NCBI GenBank assembly: GCA_021205205.1 | Contig: JAJPXY010000052.1 | Location: forward strand, 1 to 62,059 | DNA length: 62,059 bases | Source of the DNA: Clostridiales bacterium | GTDB lineage: Bacteria > Bacillota > Clostridia > Oscillospirales > Oscillospiraceae | Direction: 5' to 3' | Part shown: positions 4,344 to 17,717 of the stretch, one piece after another | Numbering within the stretch: position 1 is the stretch's first letter | How the letters are laid out: the number at the start of each line of letters is the position of its first letter | Notes under the pieces: generated by a model | Seen by the model: only the letters and a program-made list of their open reading frames with translations | What the model was told of the DNA's origin: nothing | The model's database searches: none | Translations under genes and position numbers: made by a program

Positions 4344-4501
4344 GCTGGCAGATGGGAATTATTGTTTTTTATGGCGCGGGACGAGCGGTCCATCAGGCCT
4401 CAGCGTGACGAAAGCTTCCGTTTTCGAACCGATTTAGCCCCTTTACAGGGGAAAATCGGTCAAAATTGAGAAATTATACGACACTTGTCGCGCTTTGTCC
4501 A

Positions 4502-4530
4502 TTGATGAGCGCCCCACAACAGGGTATAAT
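4502..4530 (+). promoter_or_regulatory. sigma-A promoter of the GT8/acyltransferase/PlsA operon
   Basis: TTGATG-N17-TATAAT. Confidence 0.6.
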
Positions 4531-4565
4531 AAAGCTACATGCGGGGCGGCCAGAGGGGCAAAGCT

Positions 4566-5435
4566 ATGATAGAAAACGAAAATTTTTCAACGGACTGCAT
4601 CAATGTTCTCTATTGTGGGGACAAAAATATTGAGGACGGCCTGGTCCTCTCGGTCCTGTCGTTGCTCAGGCACACGGCGGAGCCGCTGCACATCTTCGTG
4701 ATGACCATGGACCTGACACTGGACCAGCGGCGCATTTCGCCCGTCTCCCGGGAGACCGTCCGGTATCTGGATTCCTATGTGAAACGGCAAAACAGCGGCA
4801 GTTCCGTCACGCGCATCGACGCCACGGAGTTGTTCCGGGCGGAGCCGCCTCAGGCCAACCTGGAGACCCGGTTCACCCCCTGCTGTATGCTGCGGCTGTT
4901 CGCGGACCAGGTCCCCCAGCTGCCGGACCGCATCCTGTACCTGGACAACGACGTGGTCTGTCGGCAGGATTGTAGCGCGTTTTACCACCAGGACATGGAG
5001 GGATACGAGCTGGCTGGCGTACTGGACTACTACGGAAGATGGGTCTTCCGCAGCCGTCCGCTCCACATGGACTATGTCAACTCCGGGGTGCTGCTGCTGA
5101 ACCTGGCGCGCATCCGGGAGACCGGCCTCTTTGCCCGGTGCCGGGCTATGTGCCGCGACAAGCAGATGTTTATGCCGGATCAGTCCGCCATCAACAAGCT
5201 GGCCCGGGACAAAAAGCTCTGGGGCAGAGCCTATAACGAACAGCGCAAGCTGCACCAAAACACCGTTTTTCAGCATTTCACCACCAGCTTCCGCTTTTTC
5301 CCCTGGATACACACGCTGACCGTGAAGCCATGGCAAATCGAGCAGGTGCATAAAAAGCTGAAAATTCACGAGTATGATGACATTTTTCAGGAATATACTG
5401 ATGTCACCACCGCGATGAAAGGATACTTGTTATGA
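4566..5435 (+). CDS. Glycosyltransferase family 8
   Basis: LRLF, LYLDND (DxD), YVNSGVLLLNL, PDQSAIN, HFT, KPW; start at 4566 chosen over 4539. Confidence 0.9.
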   Translation: MIENENFSTDCINVLYCGDKNIEDGLVLSVLSLLRHTAEPLHIFVMTMDLTLDQRRISPVSRETVRYLDSYVKRQNSGSSVTRIDATELFRAEPPQANLETRFTPCCMLRLFADQVPQLPDRILYLDNDVVCRQDCSAFYHQDMEGYELAGVLDYYGRWVFRSRPLHMDYVNSGVLLLNLARIRETGLFARCRAMCRDKQMFMPDQSAINKLARDKKLWGRAYNEQRKLHQNTVFQHFTTSFRFFPWIHTLTVKPWQIEQVHKKLKIHEYDDIFQEYTDVTTAMKGYLL

Positions 5436-6403
5436 AACAGGATGAGATCCCCATCTTCTTCACTGTGGACGAGAGCTATGCGCCCTATTTGGACTGCGCG
5501 ATCCGCTCCATGATGGAGCGTGCGTCCAGGGCGTACACCTATCAAATCATCGTCCTCCACGAGGACTTGACCGAGGAGAGCCGGAGGAAGCTCTCCGCCG
5601 CCGTAAAGCCTCCCTTTCAGATCCGCTTTCTCCAAATGCAGGAAAAGCTGGCAGGCATCACCGACCGGGCCGAAAATAGATTGCGGTGCGATTACTTCAC
5701 ACCGACCATCTATTTCCGGCTTTTTATTGCCGACCGGTTCCCGGAGTACGACAAAGGGCTTTATCTGGACAGCGACATCGTGGTGCCAGGGGACATCTCC
5801 CAGCTGTATCAGACCGAGTTGGGAGACGATCTCATCGGCGCCTGCCCCGACCACTCCATCACGCCGGTGCCCGCGCTGGTGGACTATGTGGAAAACGCGG
5901 TGGGCATCCCCATCGAACAGTATATCAACTCCGGGATTCTGGTGATGAACCTGAAAAAAATGCGGGAGGTGGGCCTTTGCGACCACTTCCTCCATCTGCT
6001 GCACACCTATCACTTCGACTGTCTGGCCCCGGACCAGGACTATTTCAACGCCATGTGCAATGGCAAAATCGTCTACCTGGACGAGAGCTGGGACGCCATG
6101 CCGCCAGAAGGGGGCGGCGGAACAGGCGCGATATTGGAGCGCCCCAACCTGATCCACTACAACCTGTTCCAGAAGCCCTGGTGCTACGACGACATCCCCT
6201 ATGAGGACTACTTCTGGCGCTATGCGAAAGGCTCCCCCTTCTACGAGGACATCGTGCGCCACAAGGAGACCTATACCGAGGAACAGAAGGCGTCTGACCG
6301 CGCCTGCCTGGGCAATATGATCCAAAAGGGACCGGAGGTGTGCAAACAGCCGGTGGCCTTCCGCAAGATGGCAGAAAAAGGGGAGAAAATTCGCGTATGC
6401 TGA
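5432..6403 (+). CDS. Glycosyltransferase family 8
   Basis: YFRLF, LYLDSD, YINSGILVMNL, PDQDYFN, IHYN..KPW; ATGA overlap with the upstream gene. Confidence 0.92.
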   Translation: MKQDEIPIFFTVDESYAPYLDCAIRSMMERASRAYTYQIIVLHEDLTEESRRKLSAAVKPPFQIRFLQMQEKLAGITDRAENRLRCDYFTPTIYFRLFIADRFPEYDKGLYLDSDIVVPGDISQLYQTELGDDLIGACPDHSITPVPALVDYVENAVGIPIEQYINSGILVMNLKKMREVGLCDHFLHLLHTYHFDCLAPDQDYFNAMCNGKIVYLDESWDAMPPEGGGGTGAILERPNLIHYNLFQKPWCYDDIPYEDYFWRYAKGSPFYEDIVRHKETYTEEQKASDRACLGNMIQKGPEVCKQPVAFRKMAEKGEKIRVC

Positions 6404-7275
6404 TCGGAGGCAACAAGAAGCAGGTGGTGGCCAATATGCGCGCCGCCACAGAGCGGGGCGACCTGAACTGTAAGGTGGAGGTGGACGACCCCACCCTGTC
6501 CAAAGAGGAGCAGGGGGCCATCACGCAGCATTTTCTGGACAACTACAAGACCTTTGGCTACCGGTTCTGCAACGTCTGCGCCCGGGCGCTGACGGACACC
6601 GCCACCAAGTACCTGAACCGGGGCACGAAAATCGAGGGGCTGGAAAATCTGGACGGGGTCCACGGCGGGGTCATCGTGACCAGCAACCACTTTAGCCCCT
6701 TGGACAACACGGCGGTGCGCCAGGCCATGAACCGAGCCGGTTACAAGCGGCTGTACATGGTCAGCCAGGAGAGCAACCTGGCGATGAAGGGCTGGATTGG
6801 CTTTCTGATGAACCACGAGGACATCATCCCCCTGGCCAACAACGCCACCTACCTGCGCAAGCATTTCGGCCCCATGCTCCACGAGCGGCTGGAGCAGGGC
6901 CACGCCGTCCTCATCTACCCGGAGCAGGAGATGTGGTTCCACTACCGCAAGCCCCGCCCGCCCAAGCGGGGGGCTTATTACTACGCCGCCGTCAACCGCG
7001 TGCCCGTGGTGTCCTGCTTTGTAGAGATCCGGGACCTGCCGGGGACGGAGAACGACCAGTTCCACAAGACCCGGTATGTCACCCACGTTCTCCCGCCCAT
7101 CTACCCCGACCCGGCCAAAAGCGACCGGGAAAACAGCGAGGAAATGATGGCCCAGGATTACCGGCAGAAGGTGGCCGCCTATGAGCGGGCCTACGGCAAA
7201 AAACTGACCTATGCGTTTGACCTGACCGACATCGCCGGGTGGATTCCCCCGGAGCGGTCGCGGAAGCTGCCCTGA
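6397..7275 (+). CDS. PlsC/lysophospholipid acyltransferase family protein
   Basis: SNHFSPLD (HX4D) and LIYPEQ blocks; start overlaps the upstream stop. Confidence 0.85.
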   Translation: MLIGGNKKQVVANMRAATERGDLNCKVEVDDPTLSKEEQGAITQHFLDNYKTFGYRFCNVCARALTDTATKYLNRGTKIEGLENLDGVHGGVIVTSNHFSPLDNTAVRQAMNRAGYKRLYMVSQESNLAMKGWIGFLMNHEDIIPLANNATYLRKHFGPMLHERLEQGHAVLIYPEQEMWFHYRKPRPPKRGAYYYAAVNRVPVVSCFVEIRDLPGTENDQFHKTRYVTHVLPPIYPDPAKSDRENSEEMMAQDYRQKVAAYERAYGKKLTYAFDLTDIAGWIPPERSRKLP

Positions 7276-7298
7276 GGGCACGGAAAGGAAGCATCGTT

Positions 7299-10200
7299 GT
7301 GGAAGGGACAGACAGAAACCTTCGCATTGGAATCGACGTGGGGTCCACAACCGTCAAGGTGGTCGTCACCGACCCGGAAAGCGGCCGGACGCTCCACGCC
7401 CGCTACGTGCGGCACAACGCCCGCCAGCAGGAGACGGTGGACAGTCTGCTCCGGGAGGCGGCGGAGCGCTTTCCCAAGGAACGGTTCCGGGGGGCGGTCT
7501 GCGGCTCCGGCGGCAGGCCGATCGCGCAAAAGCTGGGGGTCCCCTACATACAGGAGGTGGTGGCCAACTCCGCCGCCGTCCGGGCGCTGTACCCCAATGT
7601 GAAAACCGCCGTGGAGCTGGGCGGACAGGACGCAAAGGTCGTGTTCTTCCACTACGACGAACAGAAGGGACAGCTCCAGACCTCCGATATGCGGATGAAC
7701 GGCAGCTGCGCCGGCGGCACCGGCGCGTTTATCGACGAGGTGGCGGCGCTGCTGAACGTGGAACCGGAACAGTTTGAAGCTCTGGCGGAGCAGGGCTGCA
7801 CGGTTTACGACATCTCCGGCCGGTGCGGCGTATTCGCCAAGACGGACATCCAGCCGCTGCTGCTCTCCGGGGCCAGGAAGGGGGACATCGCCCTGTCCAC
7901 CTTCCACGCCATCGTGAAGCAGACCATCGGCGGGCTGGCCCAGGGGCTGGAGCTGGAGGCCCCCATCATCTTCGAGGGCGGCCCGCTGACCTTCCACCCC
8001 ACTCTGATTCGGGTGTTCGCGGAGCGGCTGCACCTGTCGGAACAGGACATCGTCCGCCCGGAACATCCTGAGACCATCGTGGCCTACGGCACCGCCATCG
8101 CCATCGACCAACTTTTTCCCCAGGAGACGGATACCATCACCCTGGGGGAGCTGTCGGCCCGGCTGGCCCGGTCGGACGGCCCCGCAGCCTCCGAGGAGGA
8201 CGTGCAGGAGCCTCTCTTTCCCTCCCTCCAGGCGCAGCAAGCCTTTCAGGCGCGGCACGACCGGGAGCTGAAGGACCTGTGCCCGCCACAGCCGGTGGAC
8301 GGAGAGCTGCGGGTCTGGCTGGGCATCGACTCCGGCAGCACCACCTCTAAGTTCGTCCTGCTGGACGAGGAGGAGCGAGTCATCGACCGCTTCTATGCCA
8401 ACAACCAGGGGGAGCCGCTGCTGGTGGTGCGGGACGGCCTGAACGCCATGAAGCGGAAGTACGACGCCCAGGGCATCAAGCTGACCGTTCTGGGCCTGGG
8501 CACCACAGGCTACGGGGAAAATCTGCTGGCCCGGGCCTACGGCGCGGACTACCACACCGTGGAGACAGTGGCCCACGCCATGGGCTGCGCCCAGTATTAC
8601 CCAGAGGCCACCTTCCTGCTGGACATCGGCGGGCAGGACATGAAGGCCATCTGGCTGGAGGACGGCATCATCACCAACATCATGCTGAACGAAGCCTGTT
8701 CCTCCGGGTGCGGCTCGTTCCTGGAAAACTTCGCGGTGAACCTGCACATCCCCGTGGAGGAAATTGCGGACGCGGCGTTTCGGTCAGCGGCCCCGGCCAG
8801 GCTGGGCAGCCGCTGCACCGTGTTTATGAACAGCACCATCATCAACGAGCAGCGGCGGGGCAAGGGTCCCGACGACATCATGGCGGGGCTGTGCCGCTCT
8901 ATCATCGAGAACGTGTTCACCAAGGTGGTGCGCATTTCCAACACCGCTCAGCTGGGCGACTGCATCGTGGTACAGGGCGGCACCTTCCGCAACCGGGCGG
9001 TGCTGCGGGCGCTGGAGGAATATCTGGGCGCAGAGGTCCGACTGGCCCCCTACCCAGGCGAGATGGGCGCCATCGGCGCGGCCCTGGCGGTCAAGCGGCA
9101 GGTGGCGGAATCCGGCTATCAGAACGGCGTCTGTTCCTCCTTCATCGGGTTCGACGCGGTGGAACACTTTACCTATGAGACCCAGACCGGCGTCCAGTGT
9201 ATGGGCTGCGGCAACCGGTGCAGCCGCACCGTCGTCCGCTTCTCCACCGGGACGCAGCGGATCTCCGGCAACCGGTGCGAAAAGGGCGCGGTGGAGGCGC
9301 TGGACGGCTCCGCGCCGGAGAAACCGGCAAAGGAAAAACCGGCGGACCTGTTCGTGGAACGGGAAAGGCTGCTGTTTCAGGACTACCCCTATCATCAGGC
9401 CGCCCCGGACAAGGGCGAGGTCATCGGTCTGCCCCGGGTTCTGGAATTTTGGGACAGTATGCCCTTCTGGAGCACCTTCTTCCGGGCGCTGGGCTACCGG
9501 GTGAAATTCTCCCCCAAAAGCTCCCGCAGGATCTACGAGCAGGGGCTGCAATATGTGGCCTCCGACACAGTCTGTTTCCCGGCCAAGCTGGTACACGGGC
9601 ACATTATGGAGTTGTCCCGGATGGGGGTCGACCGCATCTTTTTCCCGTATGTAATGCATATGCCCCCGGAGGGGGTGGACAGGGCCAGCCCCTACGTCTG
9701 CTCCGTCCTCCAGGGCTACCCCATGGTGGTGCGCAACGCGCAGGACCCGGGGCGGGGCGGTAAGGTCATTTTCGACACTCCGGTCTTTCACTGGTTCGCG
9801 GAAAAGGACCGGAAGAAGCAGATCTGCCGCTACGCGGTGGAGACGCTGGGCGTCCCCAAGGAGGCGGCGGAGTCCGCCTTCGCGGACGGCGAACAGGCTC
9901 TGCTCTCCTTCCGCAAGACCCTGACGGACCGGGGAGAGGCGATCCTCCGCCAGGCCCACGAGACCGGCTCCTACGCGGTGGTGCTGGCAGGGCGGCCCTA
10001 CCACACCGACCCCTTCATCTGCCACGACATCTTCAAACGGTTCGAGGAGCGGGGCGTGCCGGTGCTGACGGTGGACAGCCTGCCCCACCTCAGCGAGCAG
10101 GACCTGAAAAACACCACCATCGAAATCACCAACAACTTTCACACCCGGATGCTGGAGGGGGCCATGGTGGCGGCCAAAGACCCGGCGCTGGAGTATGTGC

Positions 10201-11711
10201 AGATCGTCAGCTTTGGCTGCGGCCACGACGCCATTTTGTCCGATGAGATCAGCCGGATTTTGACCGAAAGCGGCAGCAAGTCCCCCCTCATCCTCAAGGT
10301 GGACGAGAGCGACGCCACCGGCTCCCTGGGCATCCGCATCCAGTCCTTCCTGGAGACCATCGACATCAAGCGGCGGGACGCCCGCCTGCGGGAGGCGCTG
10401 GAACACTGGCGCCGGGACCTGCCCGCGCCCAGCCCCACCAAGTTCTACAAAAAGGACAAAAAGACCCGCACCATCCTGGTGCCCAACATCTCCAAAGAGG
10501 TCTCGGTGCTGCTCTCCGCCATCATGGAGAAGGAGAACTACAAGGTCCAGACCCTGCCCATCGGGGGCCGGGAACAAATCGCCTTGGGGAAAAAGTACGT
10601 CCACAACGACATCTGTTTCCCCTGCCAGATGGTCATCGGGGAACTCATCAGCGCCTTGCAGGAGGGCCACTACCGGCAGGACGAGGTGGCCGTGGCCATG
10701 GTGAAGTTCCAGTGCGACTGCCGGATGTCCCATTACGCGGGACTGCTCCGCAAGGGGCTGGACCGGGCCGGGTTCACGGAGGTCCCCATTGTGACCACCG
10801 ACATGAGCGACACCAAGGAGATGCACCCTGGCGTGGCGGTGCTGGGCGTCAGCGCCGTGTGGGAGGCGGTGTGGACCTTTATGATGCTGGACATCCTCAC
10901 CGACCTGTGCCGGAAGATACGCCCCTACGAGCTGCACCCCGGCGAGACGGACGAGGTCTATAACGACTGCGTGGCCCAGGTGGCGGAGGGTATCCGCAGC
11001 GGCGTGGGCAGCGCCAGGCGGGCGTTCGCCCGGTGCATTGACCGGATGGGGCAAATCCCCTATGACCGGAGCCACCTGAAGCCCATGGTGTTCGTCACCG
11101 GCGAACTGCTGGTGACCTACCACCCCGGCTCCAACTTCAACATCGAGCGGTACCTGGAGGCCAACGGCATGGAGACGGCCTTCCCCCGCATCACCGACCA
11201 GCTGCGGAAGGACTTCCGGGCCACGGAGTGCGAAATTAAGGACTACCACGCCAACATTCCGCCCTATCCCCAGCTGGTGGAGGGCCTGTTCGACTACGTG
11301 CAGCGGCAGCTGGAGAAAATCGCCGTGCGGCACCCCCTTTACGAGCGCGTCAAACGGCCCAAGGACCTGTACCAGGAGGTCAGCGACATCATCCCGGAGA
11401 CGCTGAGCTGCGGCGAGGGCTGGCTGATGGCCGCGGAGATCGCCCACAACGCCAAGCGGGGCGTCAAGTCCTTCATCATTTTGCAGCCCTTCGGCTGCCT
11501 GCCCAACCACGTCTGCGGCCGGGGCGTCATCAAGCGGCTCAAGGAGGAGTACCCCGACATCTCCATCCTGCCCCTGGACCTGGACCCGGACACCAGCTAC
11601 GCCAACGTGGAAAACCGGCTGCAAATGCTCATCATGAACCGCGGCGCACAGGGAGCGAAGCGGGAGTGCCGCTTGACGGCGCAGCAGACGGCGCAGGCCA
11701 CCGCCAGCTGA
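7299..11711 (+). CDS. Fused double BadF/BcrAD-type activase + reductase/dehydratase-like protein; plasmalogen synthase PlsA/PlsR-like
   Basis: Two ASKHA ATPase modules (GIDVGSTT..ELGGQDAK..NGSCAGGTG; GIDSGSTT..DIGGQDMK..NEACSSGCG), CxxCxxxC..NRC, then two 2-hydroxyacyl-CoA dehydratase-like modules (VCFPAK, SFGCGHD, ICFPCQ, GEGW, QPFGCLPNH); GTG 7299 follows AAAGGAAG. Confidence 0.85.
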   Translation: MEGTDRNLRIGIDVGSTTVKVVVTDPESGRTLHARYVRHNARQQETVDSLLREAAERFPKERFRGAVCGSGGRPIAQKLGVPYIQEVVANSAAVRALYPNVKTAVELGGQDAKVVFFHYDEQKGQLQTSDMRMNGSCAGGTGAFIDEVAALLNVEPEQFEALAEQGCTVYDISGRCGVFAKTDIQPLLLSGARKGDIALSTFHAIVKQTIGGLAQGLELEAPIIFEGGPLTFHPTLIRVFAERLHLSEQDIVRPEHPETIVAYGTAIAIDQLFPQETDTITLGELSARLARSDGPAASEEDVQEPLFPSLQAQQAFQARHDRELKDLCPPQPVDGELRVWLGIDSGSTTSKFVLLDEEERVIDRFYANNQGEPLLVVRDGLNAMKRKYDAQGIKLTVLGLGTTGYGENLLARAYGADYHTVETVAHAMGCAQYYPEATFLLDIGGQDMKAIWLEDGIITNIMLNEACSSGCGSFLENFAVNLHIPVEEIADAAFRSAAPARLGSRCTVFMNSTIINEQRRGKGPDDIMAGLCRSIIENVFTKVVRISNTAQLGDCIVVQGGTFRNRAVLRALEEYLGAEVRLAPYPGEMGAIGAALAVKRQVAESGYQNGVCSSFIGFDAVEHFTYETQTGVQCMGCGNRCSRTVVRFSTGTQRISGNRCEKGAVEALDGSAPEKPAKEKPADLFVERERLLFQDYPYHQAAPDKGEVIGLPRVLEFWDSMPFWSTFFRALGYRVKFSPKSSRRIYEQGLQYVASDTVCFPAKLVHGHIMELSRMGVDRIFFPYVMHMPPEGVDRASPYVCSVLQGYPMVVRNAQDPGRGGKVIFDTPVFHWFAEKDRKKQICRYAVETLGVPKEAAESAFADGEQALLSFRKTLTDRGEAILRQAHETGSYAVVLAGRPYHTDPFICHDIFKRFEERGVPVLTVDSLPHLSEQDLKNTTIEITNNFHTRMLEGAMVAAKDPALEYVQIVSFGCGHDAILSDEISRILTESGSKSPLILKVDESDATGSLGIRIQSFLETIDIKRRDARLREALEHWRRDLPAPSPTKFYKKDKKTRTILVPNISKEVSVLLSAIMEKENYKVQTLPIGGREQIALGKKYVHNDICFPCQMVIGELISALQEGHYRQDEVAVAMVKFQCDCRMSHYAGLLRKGLDRAGFTEVPIVTTDMSDTKEMHPGVAVLGVSAVWEAVWTFMMLDILTDLCRKIRPYELHPGETDEVYNDCVAQVAEGIRSGVGSARRAFARCIDRMGQIPYDRSHLKPMVFVTGELLVTYHPGSNFNIERYLEANGMETAFPRITDQLRKDFRATECEIKDYHANIPPYPQLVEGLFDYVQRQLEKIAVRHPLYERVKRPKDLYQEVSDIIPETLSCGEGWLMAAEIAHNAKRGVKSFIILQPFGCLPNHVCGRGVIKRLKEEYPDISILPLDLDPDTSYANVENRLQMLIMNRGAQGAKRECRLTAQQTAQATAS

Positions 11712-11810
11712 CGGGGCCACCCCGGCCGCGGGGAGCGCAGAGCGGCATACGATTCCAAAAACAGACGGGCGGAGCCTCCCAACCCCGGAGACCCCGCTCG
11801 TTTTCTCGTC

Positions 11811-12602
11811 TCATTCGTCCCTGTCACGGTCGCGCTGCGCCGCCGGGCGGTACTCGATGTATTGGTAAGTGCTGCGCTGGCTGCGCTGCTCCATACAGGC
11901 CAGCACCTGGTCGCGCAGCTGCTTCTTCTGCTCCCGCCGGGGCAGATTCTGGTCAGGGTAAAACGGCCCGTCCAGGTAGACGGTGAGTCTCGGCTTGCCG
12001 GAGAACCGCCGGGCCTGATAGGTGGTGGTCATGCAAAAGGCGGGGACGTGGCTGTTCACCGCGTAGTCGAAGGAGGTCTCCGGGAAGGGGCGTATCTGGG
12101 TACAGTAGGGCCAGACGTGGCCCTCTGGGTAGACCACGACACAGTTCTTTTCCCGCAGCCGCTGCCCCACGGCCCGGAGGAACCGGGGCATTTGCGCCAG
12201 GTTCCCCGGGATGGGGAGCGCCCCCATCCGGGGCAGCAGCCGACCGAGCACCGGTATCCCCAAGTTGGCGGGGCTGACGACCACGTAACACCGCTTGGGG
12301 GCGCACACCAGCGCCGGGACAAAAGCGTCCCCGATGGGCTGGGTGTGGTTTCCGTAGACGACGGCTCCGCTGTCGCGGTACGCCTTCCAGTCCACAGCCC
12401 GCACGATTTTCAGGTGCAGACAGAGCTTCCCATACAGCGCCGCGAACAGATACCCCGCCCCGTACAGCGCCGCCGCCAACAGCTTGGCCCACCTGTCGTC
12501 CCGTATCCAGGTGTAGTCCGACCGCAGGGCATAGTCCTGGTCGGCGCTCTCCACAAAGTCATCCTGAAAGGTTTTGTAATAGCAAATGCGTTTCCTGGCC
12601 AT
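11811..12602 (-). CDS. PlsC/lysophospholipid acyltransferase family protein
   Basis: GNHTQPIGD and VVYPEGH blocks. Confidence 0.85.
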   Translation of the reverse strand: MARKRICYYKTFQDDFVESADQDYALRSDYTWIRDDRWAKLLAAALYGAGYLFAALYGKLCLHLKIVRAVDWKAYRDSGAVVYGNHTQPIGDAFVPALVCAPKRCYVVVSPANLGIPVLGRLLPRMGALPIPGNLAQMPRFLRAVGQRLREKNCVVVYPEGHVWPYCTQIRPFPETSFDYAVNSHVPAFCMTTTYQARRFSGKPRLTVYLDGPFYPDQNLPRREQKKQLRDQVLACMEQRSQRSTYQYIEYRPAAQRDRDRDE

Positions 12603-12647
12603 AGGGCGTCCCTCCTGTCCGCACCGCGCCGCGAGGCTCCAGCGGCG

Positions 12648-13388
12648 TCATCTGTGCCTGTCCGCTCCCAGCCAGGGCAGGTATTCGACTGCGATCAAGG
12701 CCACGATCAGAGCCGCATAGGCCGGGAGATATGCGGCCCCGACCTGCTCCTGGAGCGTTTGCAGCGGGGACCCGGGCGAACCGCGGAGCAGGAAAAAGTA
12801 GTTCGTCCCAAGACGCCGGTCGATTAGGTAGATGGGCGGCGCTGCGACCGCCAGGAACAGCACCGGTTTCCACATCGCCGTCAGCCGGGGCCTGACCGTC
12901 TTGCCCACCAGCTGCCAGACACCGTAGAGAATCAGACCGCCGTGGACGAAGAAGCCGGTCAGGTTCATATAATTCCACTGGGGATACCGGTTCCAGTCGG
13001 GGAAGAGCAGGGCCAGCGCCGCGCCCGCGATCCCCAGGCTGTAAATCGTCTGCCCCGCCCAGTCCCAGTGCGTATAGGAAAAAAGCAGGCACACCACCGG
13101 CATCAGCGTACACAGGTGCAGGGGCAGCTGATAGACGGTCTGATGCCCGGTGGCGAGCAGGATGATATGCTCCGCCGCGAGGACGTCGCACATGGACCAC
13201 GCCAGGGCTTTGCTGAGTCTGCGCTGTGTCCGGGCGCTTTTCCCCCGGAACCATCGCGACAGCAGCACGGTACCGGCGGTGATCGCCGCGAGCCACGCGA
13301 GATGTACCGGGGAAAAGTGGGAAAATCCCACGTCTGCCGGCAATTCTGTTTCATAGGCGAAAAAACAAGGCGCAGTCCCCCCTACCAT
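12648..13388 (-). CDS. YwaF / TP0381-type (TMEM164-related) integral membrane protein
   Basis: ~6 hydrophobic helices; F.FSPVH, LPLHLC, FFVHG, GTNYFFL motifs; start position uncertain. Confidence 0.75.
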   Translation of the reverse strand: MVGGTAPCFFAYETELPADVGFSHFSPVHLAWLAAITAGTVLLSRWFRGKSARTQRRLSKALAWSMCDVLAAEHIILLATGHQTVYQLPLHLCTLMPVVCLLFSYTHWDWAGQTIYSLGIAGAALALLFPDWNRYPQWNYMNLTGFFVHGGLILYGVWQLVGKTVRPRLTAMWKPVLFLAVAAPPIYLIDRRLGTNYFFLLRGSPGSPLQTLQEQVGAAYLPAYAALIVALIAVEYLPWLGADRHR

Positions 13389-13883
13389 CGTTTCACAAGG
13401 CGTTCCGCCAGGCGGACTGCCTTTTCTGTTTTGTCTGCCTATAGTATACCACAAACGTTGGAAAACCGGCAGCCGGAACAGTATTTTTTCCGGGGACCGC
13501 GCAAAGGGAGGGGCTGTTCTGCCGCAGGAGGCGGCCCATCGCTGCCGCTATTTTACCACAGGGGCAGGTCTTTGTAAATCTGTCCGGCATATTTCGCAGC
13601 AAGCGCGGCCGGAGGACGCCAAAATGCAGGGTTTTTCTCCAACGGAACCATCCGGGCGTTACCGCCGTGCTTATCCGTTTAATATTTCCGATTCGGAAGG
13701 AAAAACCGTTTTAAGTTGATATTTTACACTTTATTCACAAAAATTCGCTTAAAGTTTAGGTTCGCTTGTTCTGCCTCCGCTATAATATAGATGATTCCCC
13801 CCTCAGCGAGTTTTCCCCGTCCGGGCGGAGGGAGCGCGCTGCCACACACCCTCTGGGGATTTCTATCCGAAAAGGAGGCCCTT

Positions 13884-14600: not shown

Positions 14601-17600
14601 ATGCGAAAAAAACAGAAAAAAGCGCAGAATACCAGGACCTCCATGTCGTTCCTAACGGCGCTGGGCCTCTCCGCCAACAATCTGCGCACCAAAAAGGGCC
14701 GGACGCTGATGACCGCCTTCGCGGGCAGCATCGGCATCATCGGCATTGCGCTGATTCTGGCCCTTTCCAGCGGCGTAAACGACTATATTCAGGGCATCGA
14801 GGAGGACACCCTGGCCGAGTACCCCCTCCAAATCACCAGCTCCGCCTTTGACATCTCCTCGCTGCTGTCCACCATGTCCTCCTCGGATGTGACGGGCAAC
14901 GTAATTGAAGCGGAGGCCGACGCGGAAATCTCCGTGACAGAGGTCATCTCCACCCTGTTCTCCCAGATGAACTCCAACGACCTGGCCTCGCTGAAGGAGT
15001 ACATCGAGAGCGGCGAGAGCGACCTGATGGACTACGTCTCCTCCATCGAGTATATCTACGACCTGGAGCCGGAAATCTACCTCCAGGACGGCGACTCCGT
15101 CCGGCGGGTCAACCCGGACGACTCTCTCAGTCTCAGCAGCGGTTCCATTTTCTCCAGCTTCATGTCCTCATCCGGCATCACCTCGTTCTACGCCATGCCG
15201 GAGCAGGAGTCCCTGTATATGAGCCAGTACGACGTGCTGGCGGGTCATTGGCCGGAAAACTACAACGAGTGCGTGTTGGTCCTGACCTCGGACGGCAGCG
15301 TCAGCGACTATATGCTGTACACCCTTGGCCTGCGGGATTACTCCGAGCTGGAGAACATCATCGAGCAGTATTCCGACGGCGAGGACGTCGTCGGAATCAA
15401 GAACATCGGCGCGTATACCTATGACGACGTGCTGGGTATCACCTTCAAGGTGGTTTGCAGCGCCGACTACTACGCCTACGACAGCGAATACGACGTCTGG
15501 GTGGACAAGACAGACAATGAGGAATATCTGGCCGAGCTGGTGGAAAACGGGGAAGATCTGACCATCGTCGGGGTGGTGCAACCCTCCGAGGACGCCTCCG
15601 GCGCGGCCCTGTCCTCCGGCATCAACTACCCCATGTCCCTGATTTACCACATATCGGAGCTGTCGGAGAGCAGCGACGCGGTCCAGGCCCAGCTGGCCAA
15701 CCCGGATGTCAACATTTTCACCGGGGAGGAGTTCGGTGAGGACACCGACGAGTTTGATTTAAGCTCCGTGCTCTCCATCGACGAGGACGCACTGTCCGAC
15801 CTGTTCGACCTGAGCGGCCTGACGGATTCCTTTACCTTCGACCTGTCCTCCATGGACCTGGATACCAGTTCCCTGGACCTGGATTTCAGCTCGATGGACC
15901 TGGACTTTTCCTCGCTGGACCTGGACATCGACCTGAGTGCGCTGGACCTGTCCTCCATGGACCTGGACCTGAGTCTGGACTCCAGCTCGCTGGACCTCTC
16001 CGACTATCTGGACCTGAGTTCCATTGATTTGAGCTCCATCGATGCAAGCTCCATCGAAATCGGCCTGTCGGGCCTGGACCTGAACGAACTGCTCAGCGGC
16101 ATCACGCTGGACATCTCCCAGGACGCCGTGACCGACCTGACCAACGACCTGCTGGCCGGGTATGAGACCTATCTGGAGAGCAACTCCGGCGCATCCTATT
16201 CCGACCTGACAGACGACTTTTCCGCCTATCTGAACAGCGATGAGGCGGCGGACCTCATTGAGGACTTTTTGAACGACCTGATAAAAAACAGCGAAGTCTC
16301 CGTTCCGACTGACGGCCTGACCGAGGTCATCGAGAAGAGCCTGAAAGAGGCCGAGGAGGCGGGGACCCCCGTCACCGCGGATACCCTCGTCACCGCAGTC
16401 GCCAACTACGTCAACGAGTCGGCGGAGGTTTCGGTCAGCGTCGGCGACGCTGACCTCAGCGGTCTGGTCAGTTCGCTGGTCTCCGGCTACAGCGACTACG
16501 CGAAGGCCAACGGCCTGACCACCTTCGACAGCGTCAGCGAGAGCTTTTCCGCCTATCTCAGCACAGACGAGGCGGCGCAGATTTTGTCCGACGGCCTGAT
16601 GAGCATGGTGGATATGGACGCCATACAGGAGCAGGTGGCCGACACTCTGGAGGACTATTTGCAGACCGCCTTCGCCTCTGCGCTGTCCGCCTACACGGAG
16701 GCGCTGTCGGCGGCCATCGAGGAGCAGCTCACCGCCGCCATGGAGCAGATGATGAGCGGGCTGACGGAACAGCTCAGCGCGCAGGTTTCCGCCCAGCTGT
16801 CCAGCGCCATGGAGCAGATGATGGGACAAGTGTCAGAAGAAATCACCGCGCAACTCTCCACCCAGCTGTCCGGCGCCCTGTCGTCCATGACTGACGAGGT
16901 CATGGAGCAGCTTTCCGGCCAGCTTTCGGACAGCATGGAGTCCATGATGACCGAGATGATGGAGGGTCTGTCGGACAGTCTGGCGGACTCCCTGACCATC
17001 GACGCGGACACGCTGACGGACGCTTTCAACTTCAACATGGATAGCGACGCGCTGACCGAGCTGCTGTCCTCCATGAGCGACTCTGTGGGCACGGATTATA
17101 CAAGCAACCTGACATCCCTGGGCTACGCGGACTTCGCAACGCCCAGCGAAATCGACATCTATCCCATCGACTTTGACGCCAAGGAGGAGGTCGTGGCCAT
17201 TCTGGACAGCTACAACGACCAGATGGACGCCGCAGGCGAGACGGATAAAATCATCTCCTACACCGACCTGGCCGGTACCATGATGTCCTCGGTGACGACC
17301 ATCATCAACGTGGTCTCCTATGTGCTGATCGCGTTCATCGCGGTCTCTCTGGTGGTGTCCTGCATTATGATCTCCATTATCACCCAAATCTCCGTTATGG
17401 AGCGGACCAAGGAGATCGGTATCCTCCGCGCCATCGGCGCCAGCAAGGGGAACATCTCCCTGGTGTTCAACGCGGAGACCTTCATCATCGGCAGCTGCTC
17501 CGGCCTGATCGGTGTGATCGTGACGGAGCTGTTGATTTTCCCCATCAACAGCCTGATCCACGGCCTGGTGGGAGACACCTCAGTCAACGCAGTCCTGCCC

Positions 17601-17717
17601 TGGACCTATGCGGGTATGCTGGTCATTCTCAGCATTGTCATCACCGTGCTCAGCGGGCTGGTGCCCGCCTGGCGGGCGGCCAAGCTGGACCCGGTCACCG
17701 CCCTGCGGTCGGAATAA
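14601..17717 (+). CDS. MacB/FtsX-type ABC permease with large acidic extracytoplasmic domain
   Basis: N-terminal TM ([16 protein letters not shown]), C-terminal FtsX block ([14 protein letters not shown]...[10 protein letters not shown]); GGAGGTG RBS. Confidence 0.9.

Follow-up and report, generated by a model that had tools for sequence, protein, structure and literature searches.

Enzymes of the PlsA and Ger types reduce sn-1 esters anaerobically (PMC9702350, PMC12838417, PMC13159169, PMC8788747). PlsA/PlsR of Clostridium perfringens, which is a single open reading frame (ORF) in Enterococcus faecalis and L. cremoris, has an Act1-Act2-Red1-Red2 layout of about 1,450 aa with conserved Cys residues (PMC12838417, PMC9702350), and Ger of Thermotoga maritima and Desulfatibacillum alkenivorans has two activation domains and DUF2229 (PMC13159169); the two enzymes are indistinguishable from sequence, and what the additional PlsA/Ger paralogues of Bacillota do is described as an unsettled question (PMC13274423). 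The genes that flank the ATP-binding cassette (ABC) exporter gene horA of beer-spoiling bacteria are located consistently around horA, are transcribed more than 3-fold higher than horA in beer and have been flagged for study (PMC3765258); they have been classed among phospholipid or cell-wall genes (PMC3765258, PMC4394401), listed as marks of beer spoilers (PMC4394401, PMC6533708) and enriched on beer-spoiler plasmids (PMC6533708), and the available text of these three reports names no product for them and does not treat the four genes as one pathway. Relatives of both systems meet at positions 4502 to 13388 of a 62,059-nucleotide stretch (hereafter the window) of contig JAJPXY010000052.1, from an Oscillospiraceae genome (GCA_021205205.1), where two family 8 glycosyltransferase (GT8) genes and two acyltransferase (AT) genes adjoin a gene for a PlsA/Ger-type reductase. 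The conserved unit is a module of four genes (GT8a, GT8b, AT1 and AT2), and the linkage of the two GT8s, the two acyltransferases and the reductase exceeds chance in several clostridial lineages. The five genes are as follows.

4566 to 5435, plus strand: GT8a, a family 8 glycosyltransferase (PF01501) with a DxD motif (YLDND), PDQ, and invariant aromatic/basic segments YGxWxF and FRFxP.
5432 to 6403, plus strand: GT8b, an LgtC/WbbM-like family 8 glycosyltransferase (PF01501) with YLDSD, DQD and HYN..KPW.
6397 to 7275, plus strand: AT1, a PlsC/GPAT-fold acyltransferase (PF01553) with the motif NHFxPL[DE] (HX4D/E).
7299 to 11711, plus strand: the reductase, 1470 aa, with two PF01869 stretches, PF09989 and a C-terminal PlsR-like part; a PlsA/Ger-type paralogue of clade I.
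11811 to 12602, minus strand: AT2, a PlsC/GPAT-fold acyltransferase (PF01553) with NHTQPxGD (an HX5D variant); a module member, inverted here.

The first-pass annotation had combined these genes with a neighbouring YwaF gene into a six-gene cluster. All six ORFs were confirmed in the window, and Pfam and NCBIfam profiles give the order GT8, GT8, PlsC-type, double activase with DUF2229, PlsC-type and TMEM164/YwaF, with intact catalytic motifs, AT2 showing the variant HX5D in place of HX4D. GT8a and GT8b overlap by ATGA and GT8b and AT1 by 7 bases, and a 23-bp gap separates AT1 from the reductase, whose GTG start at 7299 is preceded by AAGGAAG. The gene structure, the promoter-like site before it and the family assignments are thus borne out, but the cluster is not: its core is four genes that also occur around horA, mostly without a linked reductase.

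The extent of the module was established by a scan of genomes with a GT8a alignment, from which the best 80 of 334 relatives were kept (all counts among 80 loci refer to these); 13 of the 80 end too early, and the remaining 67 are informative for reductase linkage. In total, 129 other module loci were fetched, some of them redundant. GT8b is present at 72 of the best 80 GT8a loci, AT1 at 70, AT2 at 65 and all four genes at 58; of the 65 AT2 genes, 59 have the orientation of the module and six are inverted like that of the window. GT8a is fused to GT8b at loci L079 and L197-L199, and GT8b to AT1 at L200 and L201. The closest named GT8a loci are labelled as Clostridiales or Oscillospiraceae metagenome-assembled genomes (MAGs). 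AT1 was also detected in 30 of 121 Lactobacillaceae sampled, and GT8a in 14 of 399 other Clostridia drawn at random and in 30 of 41 genomes of the gut genus to which L079 belongs; most of 20 distant loci inspected from these three sources have three or four module genes, and none has the reductase. The genome under study possesses a housekeeping PlsC (contig C119) and PlsY (contig C149), and AT1 and AT2 are therefore additional to the housekeeping set. Taken together, the four module genes very probably form one envelope-lipid pathway. Variants include a tandem duplicate of GT8b inside the module of three lactobacilli (L088, L233, L238), which might lengthen a sugar chain, and a distant GT8a without the module that directly precedes an Mgs-like GT4 gene (L232:6975-8982).

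The horA cluster is the closest described counterpart of the module. In a search of plasmids, 17 of 18 strong matches to GT8a were in lactobacilli and pediococci, mostly brewery isolates, and on pPECL-8 and pUCCLBBS124_D counterparts of all four module genes surround the ABC exporter gene. The two GT8 and two PlsC-like genes of the horA cluster are homologous to those of the window (GT8a 48%, GT8b 44%, AT1 44% and AT2 40% identical), whereas the window locus lacks horA and a plasmid context and has the appended PlsA/Ger-type reductase: no horA-type exporter gene lies within 4502 to 13388, and the best HorA match of the genome (31%) is on another contig. One Lactobacillaceae contig of 1.9 Mb has a horA-like exporter gene (57% identity) within its module (L237:1982-7178), and given this locus the horA arrangement is likely to be chromosomal as well.

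The reductase consists of two BadF/BcrAD activase domains, DUF2229 and a C-terminal PlsR-like part, that is, the layout, approximate length and conserved Cys residues of PlsA/PlsR and the activation domains and DUF2229 of Ger, and it matches PlsA-like proteins colinearly over the full length, C-terminal part included. Candidate Fe-S ligands (C137, 176, 467, 506, 634, 637, 641, 660, 759, 801 and 974) are conserved in 47-48 of 48 aligned rows, and C1106, 1141 and 1400 in 43 of 48, some rows being without that part. Trees built from the first ~1,000 residues (46 rows in one and 42 in the other; incomplete and redundant rows were left out, as was the outgroup in the second) separate a canonical-type group, clade II and clade I, with a Shimodaira-Hasegawa-like approximate likelihood ratio (SH-aLRT) support of 100 for the canonical-type group, a designation that rests on stand-ins from Listeria, Fusobacterium and Collinsella for the tested proteins of C. 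perfringens, E. faecalis and L. cremoris. Its members are those of Listeria, Fusobacterium and Acetoanaerobium, a TetR-linked Collinsella gene and a split gene pair on contig C4 of the genome under study; clade II contains a gene on contig C98 of the same genome and a second Collinsella gene; clade I includes the window reductase, which is 37-39% identical to the canonical-type proteins versus 46-57% identity within that group. The earlier assignment to the PlsA type therefore stands as regards domain layout and Cys residues and fails as regards descent, the protein being a paralogue outside the canonical PlsA-like clade with close relatives that lack the module. Since sequence does not separate PlsA from Ger (PMC13274423), a vinyl and an alkyl ether product cannot be told apart here.

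The genome holds three DUF2229 loci: the window gene, the 53% identical clade II paralogue, a single ORF beside a gene that is MarR-like by eye (C98:8574-13196), and the split canonical-type pair (C4:1005-5263; 38% and 31% identical). A housekeeping PlsA role for the window reductase was considered and rejected, in view of the pair on C4 and the position of the window gene outside the canonical-type clade. By a hand count of rows, 31 of the 32 genomes that carry a linked reductase also have a canonical-type copy, and the module-linked reductase is therefore an extra one. Clade I reductases are rare: the 398 other Clostridia that were scored yielded none, and 400 genomes of the order a single relative with 55% identity. 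Linked loci occur throughout subclade Ia of this clade.

The sole solved relatives of the reductase are activators of the HgdC/BcrAD type, no report of a tested clade I or clade II member was found, and identity to the canonical-type group is low, all of which would suit a fused activator/dehydratase-type enzyme acting on soluble acyl-CoA and adjacent to the module because it would provide the acyltransferases with an unusual acyl chain. The colinearity and Cys pattern shared with PlsA-like proteins, C-terminal part included, argue for a lipid reductase instead, as does the lack of a PF06050 dehydratase match in the 1470-aa chain: 2-hydroxyacyl-CoA dehydratase (HgdC/HgdAB) has a stand-alone activator and PF06050 subunits, in contrast to this single chain. 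Action on acyl-CoA is accordingly considered highly improbable. T. maritima Ger is itself reported to have small PF06050 domains, of which none was detected in the window reductase.

The reductase gene directly follows the module on the same strand in 33 of the 67 informative loci, with a spacing of between -4 and 221 bp as judged from tblastn ends, in carriers labelled Oscillospiraceae, Lachnospiraceae, Anaerovoracaceae and others. Gene orders vary among linked loci, the reductase being located after AT1, after AT2 (L044), between AT1 and AT2 (L144), or in modules without GT8b (L191) or without AT1 (L020), and in the trees of AT1 and GT8b the linked modules fall into several separate groups. 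Two more linked genomes, of another genus, were found by starting from the reductase. The distances between AT1 sequences correlate with those between reductases at 19 linked loci (Spearman 0.39, Mantel p 0.009; kin are not independent). Within the genus of the genome under study, all 13 genomes with GT8a have a clade I reductase and 29 of 43 genomes have neither, a joint presence and absence that may reflect a single acquisition. The linkage expected in the first-pass annotation is thus conserved for the GT8 pair, the acyltransferases and the reductase, and for the YwaF gene it is not.

An appended reductase that turns one ester of the module's own lipid into an ether is given about an even chance, and several observations weigh against it. 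No reductase is nearby at 34 of the 67 informative loci, none of the 14 module-bearing Clostridia of the random draw had a clade I reductase, and many of the top loci belong to one related MAG series. A clade I copy is located elsewhere in 13 of 47 genomes behind unlinked or short loci; among 13 such copies retrieved, seven have no module gene in the stretch, and most adjoin an ABC transporter. A clade I alignment was also used to scan metagenomes, and the best 80 of 560 matches fell into 17 lineages, 12 of them informative, and only two of the 12 are linked. SH-aLRT support for subclade Ia is moderate (82), and a sister subclade and the reductase of genome G734 stand alone. AT1 had no match in G734, G1297 and G1227, three genomes of the family with reductases in or close to clade I, whereas the positive control gave one; genome G559, of the same genus as the window, has its reductase at a contig end and no module match; and in one Lachnospiraceae lineage the reductase has moved out of the module into a TetR/ABC/SDR context. 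Moreover, reduction of glycolipids could already be carried out by the cell's canonical-type enzyme. Solo copies nested among the linked ones include common human-gut copies of the Lachnospira type, from a genus in which clade I is found in four of 41 genomes, all four with GT8a and one with it adjacent. A reductase clade strictly dedicated to the module is not upheld by these reductase-first tests, which show solo relatives; the reductase is an optional add-on, its relatives kept without the module and the module kept without it.

The frequent solo occurrence of clade I reductases, and their presence where AT1 was not found, would also be expected if the module makes a glycolipid while the reductase serves as a second, general-purpose enzyme of ether-lipid synthesis that acts on bulk lipids and is tied to the module only by co-regulation in a TetR-controlled membrane-stress regulon. 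TetR genes also adjoin reductases without the module at L099, L102 and L106, in Collinsella and in E. faecalis (EF1326; PMC9702350), and known PlsA enzymes act on the lipids of their own host (PMC12838417). Such a division of labour is nevertheless somewhat unlikely: the reductase is tightly coupled to the module on the same strand in several lineages and in various gene orders, at one locus within the module itself; GT8a and the clade I reductase are present or absent together in the window's genus; and nearly all linked genomes already have a canonical-type copy.

Both GT8s match PF01501 and have intact DxD and D-Q motifs, and enzymes of this family transfer alpha-sugars with retention. GT8a is likely, judging from its sequence, to be a membrane-facing, priming enzyme, since its conserved aromatic/basic loops suggest an acceptor in the membrane. 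Among usual primer glycosyltransferases, PF06925 had no match in the genome, nor did one Mgs-like GT4 query and a two-sequence profile, a weak test in which PF00534 and GT2 were not searched; the result leaves room for GT8a to make the first bond. Models of both AT1 and AT2 have the PlsC/GPAT fold. LpxM, PatA and PlsC match the AT1 model equally (Foldseek E 2-4e-7), so that fold searches with it gave no separation of a glycerolipid-type from a sugar-type acyltransferase; the best match of the AT2 model is PlsC (Z 14.6, root-mean-square deviation 4.0, 186 aligned). AT1 has the motif HX4D/E, and AT2 has invariant H86 and D92, i.e. HX5D. HX4D enzymes acylate glycerol or sugar hydroxyls.

The module is likely to build a dedicated acylated glycolipid. 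In the proposed pathway, GT8a would add the first alpha-sugar from a UDP-sugar to glycerol or a lipid acceptor, GT8b would add a second alpha-sugar, and AT1 and AT2 would each attach one acyl chain. Under anoxia the ATP-driven [4Fe-4S] reductase would then convert one ester, by analogy that at sn-1, to a vinyl or alkyl ether, and in lactobacilli and most clostridia the pathway would stop at the ester form.

The closest solved GT8 structures, LgtC and WbbM, are of enzymes that extend lipooligosaccharide or O-antigen. The module might accordingly decorate a wall polymer or lipid anchor (a lipoteichoic acid anchor, teichoic acid or wall polysaccharide), with the reductase acting at most on the anchor. 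The original paper on gtfD15, a gene of L. brevis, reportedly puts forward a surface-polysaccharide hypothesis. This gene encodes a GT8 tied to the cell envelope, and a cited title links it to hop tolerance (PMC12188725); it may correspond to either GT8a or GT8b, the GT8a counterpart being the 15th gene in the plasmid gene list. MsbA-like ABC exporters beside the module, including that of the horA cluster, would fit the same role. Decoration of a wall polymer is nonetheless quite improbable, given that two PlsC-fold acyltransferases are core members of the module, one of them fused to GT8b at some loci, and that no polymerase, ligase or LtaS-like gene recurs among the neighbours in the ORF lists (by eye, no family scan).

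Two elements precede the operon.

4479 to 4490, strand-symmetric: palindrome CGACA-N2-TGTCG, a likely TetR operator, the sole exact copy in the genome.
4502 to 4530, plus strand: sigma-70-type promoter-like site TTGATG-17-TATAAT, 10 of 12 consensus matches.

The -10 box recurs in relatives at about the same distance upstream. A copy of the palindrome with one mismatch is located 114 bp before a TetR orthologue gene on contig C72, whose product is 59% identical to the TetR encoded just upstream of the module at 11 of the 80 loci. In close relatives the motif occurs at the operon promoter, about 72 bp before GT8a, and is repeated before a divergent heterodimeric ABC exporter, with four to five copies in the TetR/ABC spacer. 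To judge from these sites, a TetR protein encoded elsewhere in the genome likely controls the operon. MsbA-like heterodimeric ABC exporters are encoded within 3.5 kb of the module at 16 of the 80 loci, several being 51-57% identical and in other arrangements, and the corresponding pair of this genome is on contig C148; their recurrence beside the module parallels horA, and they may serve as flippases or in efflux. A strong promoter-like site on the minus strand (4473 to 4501; 11 of 12 matches) overlaps the operator and faces away from the operon towards the trkH end; no minus-strand gene is evident downstream of it, and it is possibly a remnant of an earlier arrangement. At two loci labelled Lachnospiraceae (L028, L029) the TetR-ABC-module cassette is 73-90% identical to the form in the window's genus, which indicates either horizontal transfer or mis-binning.

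Beyond the reductase, the window contains the following.

11769 to 11797: terminator-like hairpin between the reductase and AT2 genes, which converge on it.
12648 to 13388, minus strand: YwaF/TMEM164-family membrane protein (PF14808 and TIGR02206), a neighbour only.

The YwaF ORF extends from 12648 to 13454 on the minus strand and is taken from its ATG at 13388; its product passes the PF14808 and TIGR02206 cut-offs, and C93 (in LPLHLC) and H149 are candidates, by inspection only, for a nucleophile/His dyad. Human TMEM164, of the ATGY family, acylates lyso-ether lipids (bioRxiv 10.1101/2022.07.06.498872), and the window gene shares its family profile, but the link is not conserved. The six-gene cluster was rejected on this count: the YwaF gene is a chance neighbour and not a member of the cluster, because it is absent from all 129 other module loci and located elsewhere in genomes of the same genus without the module. 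The non-conserved 3' tail of the reductase ORF contains a 36-bp dispersed repeat (11649 to 11684) similar to repetitive extragenic palindromic (REP) elements, with about 40 matches in the genome and many in genomes of the same genus. An ABC permease-like ORF of 1038 aa (14601 to 17717, plus strand) has a long Ser/Asp/Leu-rich low-complexity insert.

Glyco-plasmalogens are known from gut anaerobes (PMC10080676, PMC12291448, PMC11898633), and those of Collinsella aerofaciens (CaPlsM), Eggerthella lenta (ElPlsM-1) and C. difficile belong to the same lipid class as the proposed product. In Collinsella and Eggerthella the sugar of these lipids is beta-galactofuranose, which is not what a retaining GT8 would yield from an alpha-linked donor. 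The C. difficile lipid is made through UgtA/UgtB (PMC11898633). A C. aerofaciens record has two four-domain reductases, one of clade II and one canonical-type (L095:7995-12434 and L215:7141-11922), each beside a TetR gene, and module genes were not seen beside either. What is new is the gene set and not the lipid class. The earlier statement that no described pathway joins these parts accordingly holds for the gene set: searches of the open literature, with subscription papers mostly outside it, brought up no report of the module's product, its spread in gut clostridia or its coupling to a PlsA/Ger paralogue.

The locus joins two questions, the function of the horA-flanking genes, flagged since at least 2013 (PMC3765258), and that of the extra PlsA/Ger paralogues (PMC13274423). 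In the most far-reaching interpretation, which is tentative and unlikely, the horA-flanking genes would be a self-contained pathway for an undescribed acylated diglycosyl lipid without the usual GT4 or GT28 primer, and in gut clostridia a separate PlsA/Ger clade would have been recruited as an ether synthase that is specific for glycolipids and might reduce an ester placed by the module, even one borne by a sugar. If true, this would make the locus a movable ether-glycolipid cassette and provide a biochemical explanation for the share of the horA cluster in hop tolerance. Glyco-plasmalogens of gut anaerobes are a source of TLR2 agonists (PMC10080676, PMC12291448), and in one gut genus 30 of 41 genomes have module genes; a defined product would therefore be relevant to lipid signalling in the microbiome as well as to brewing microbiology.

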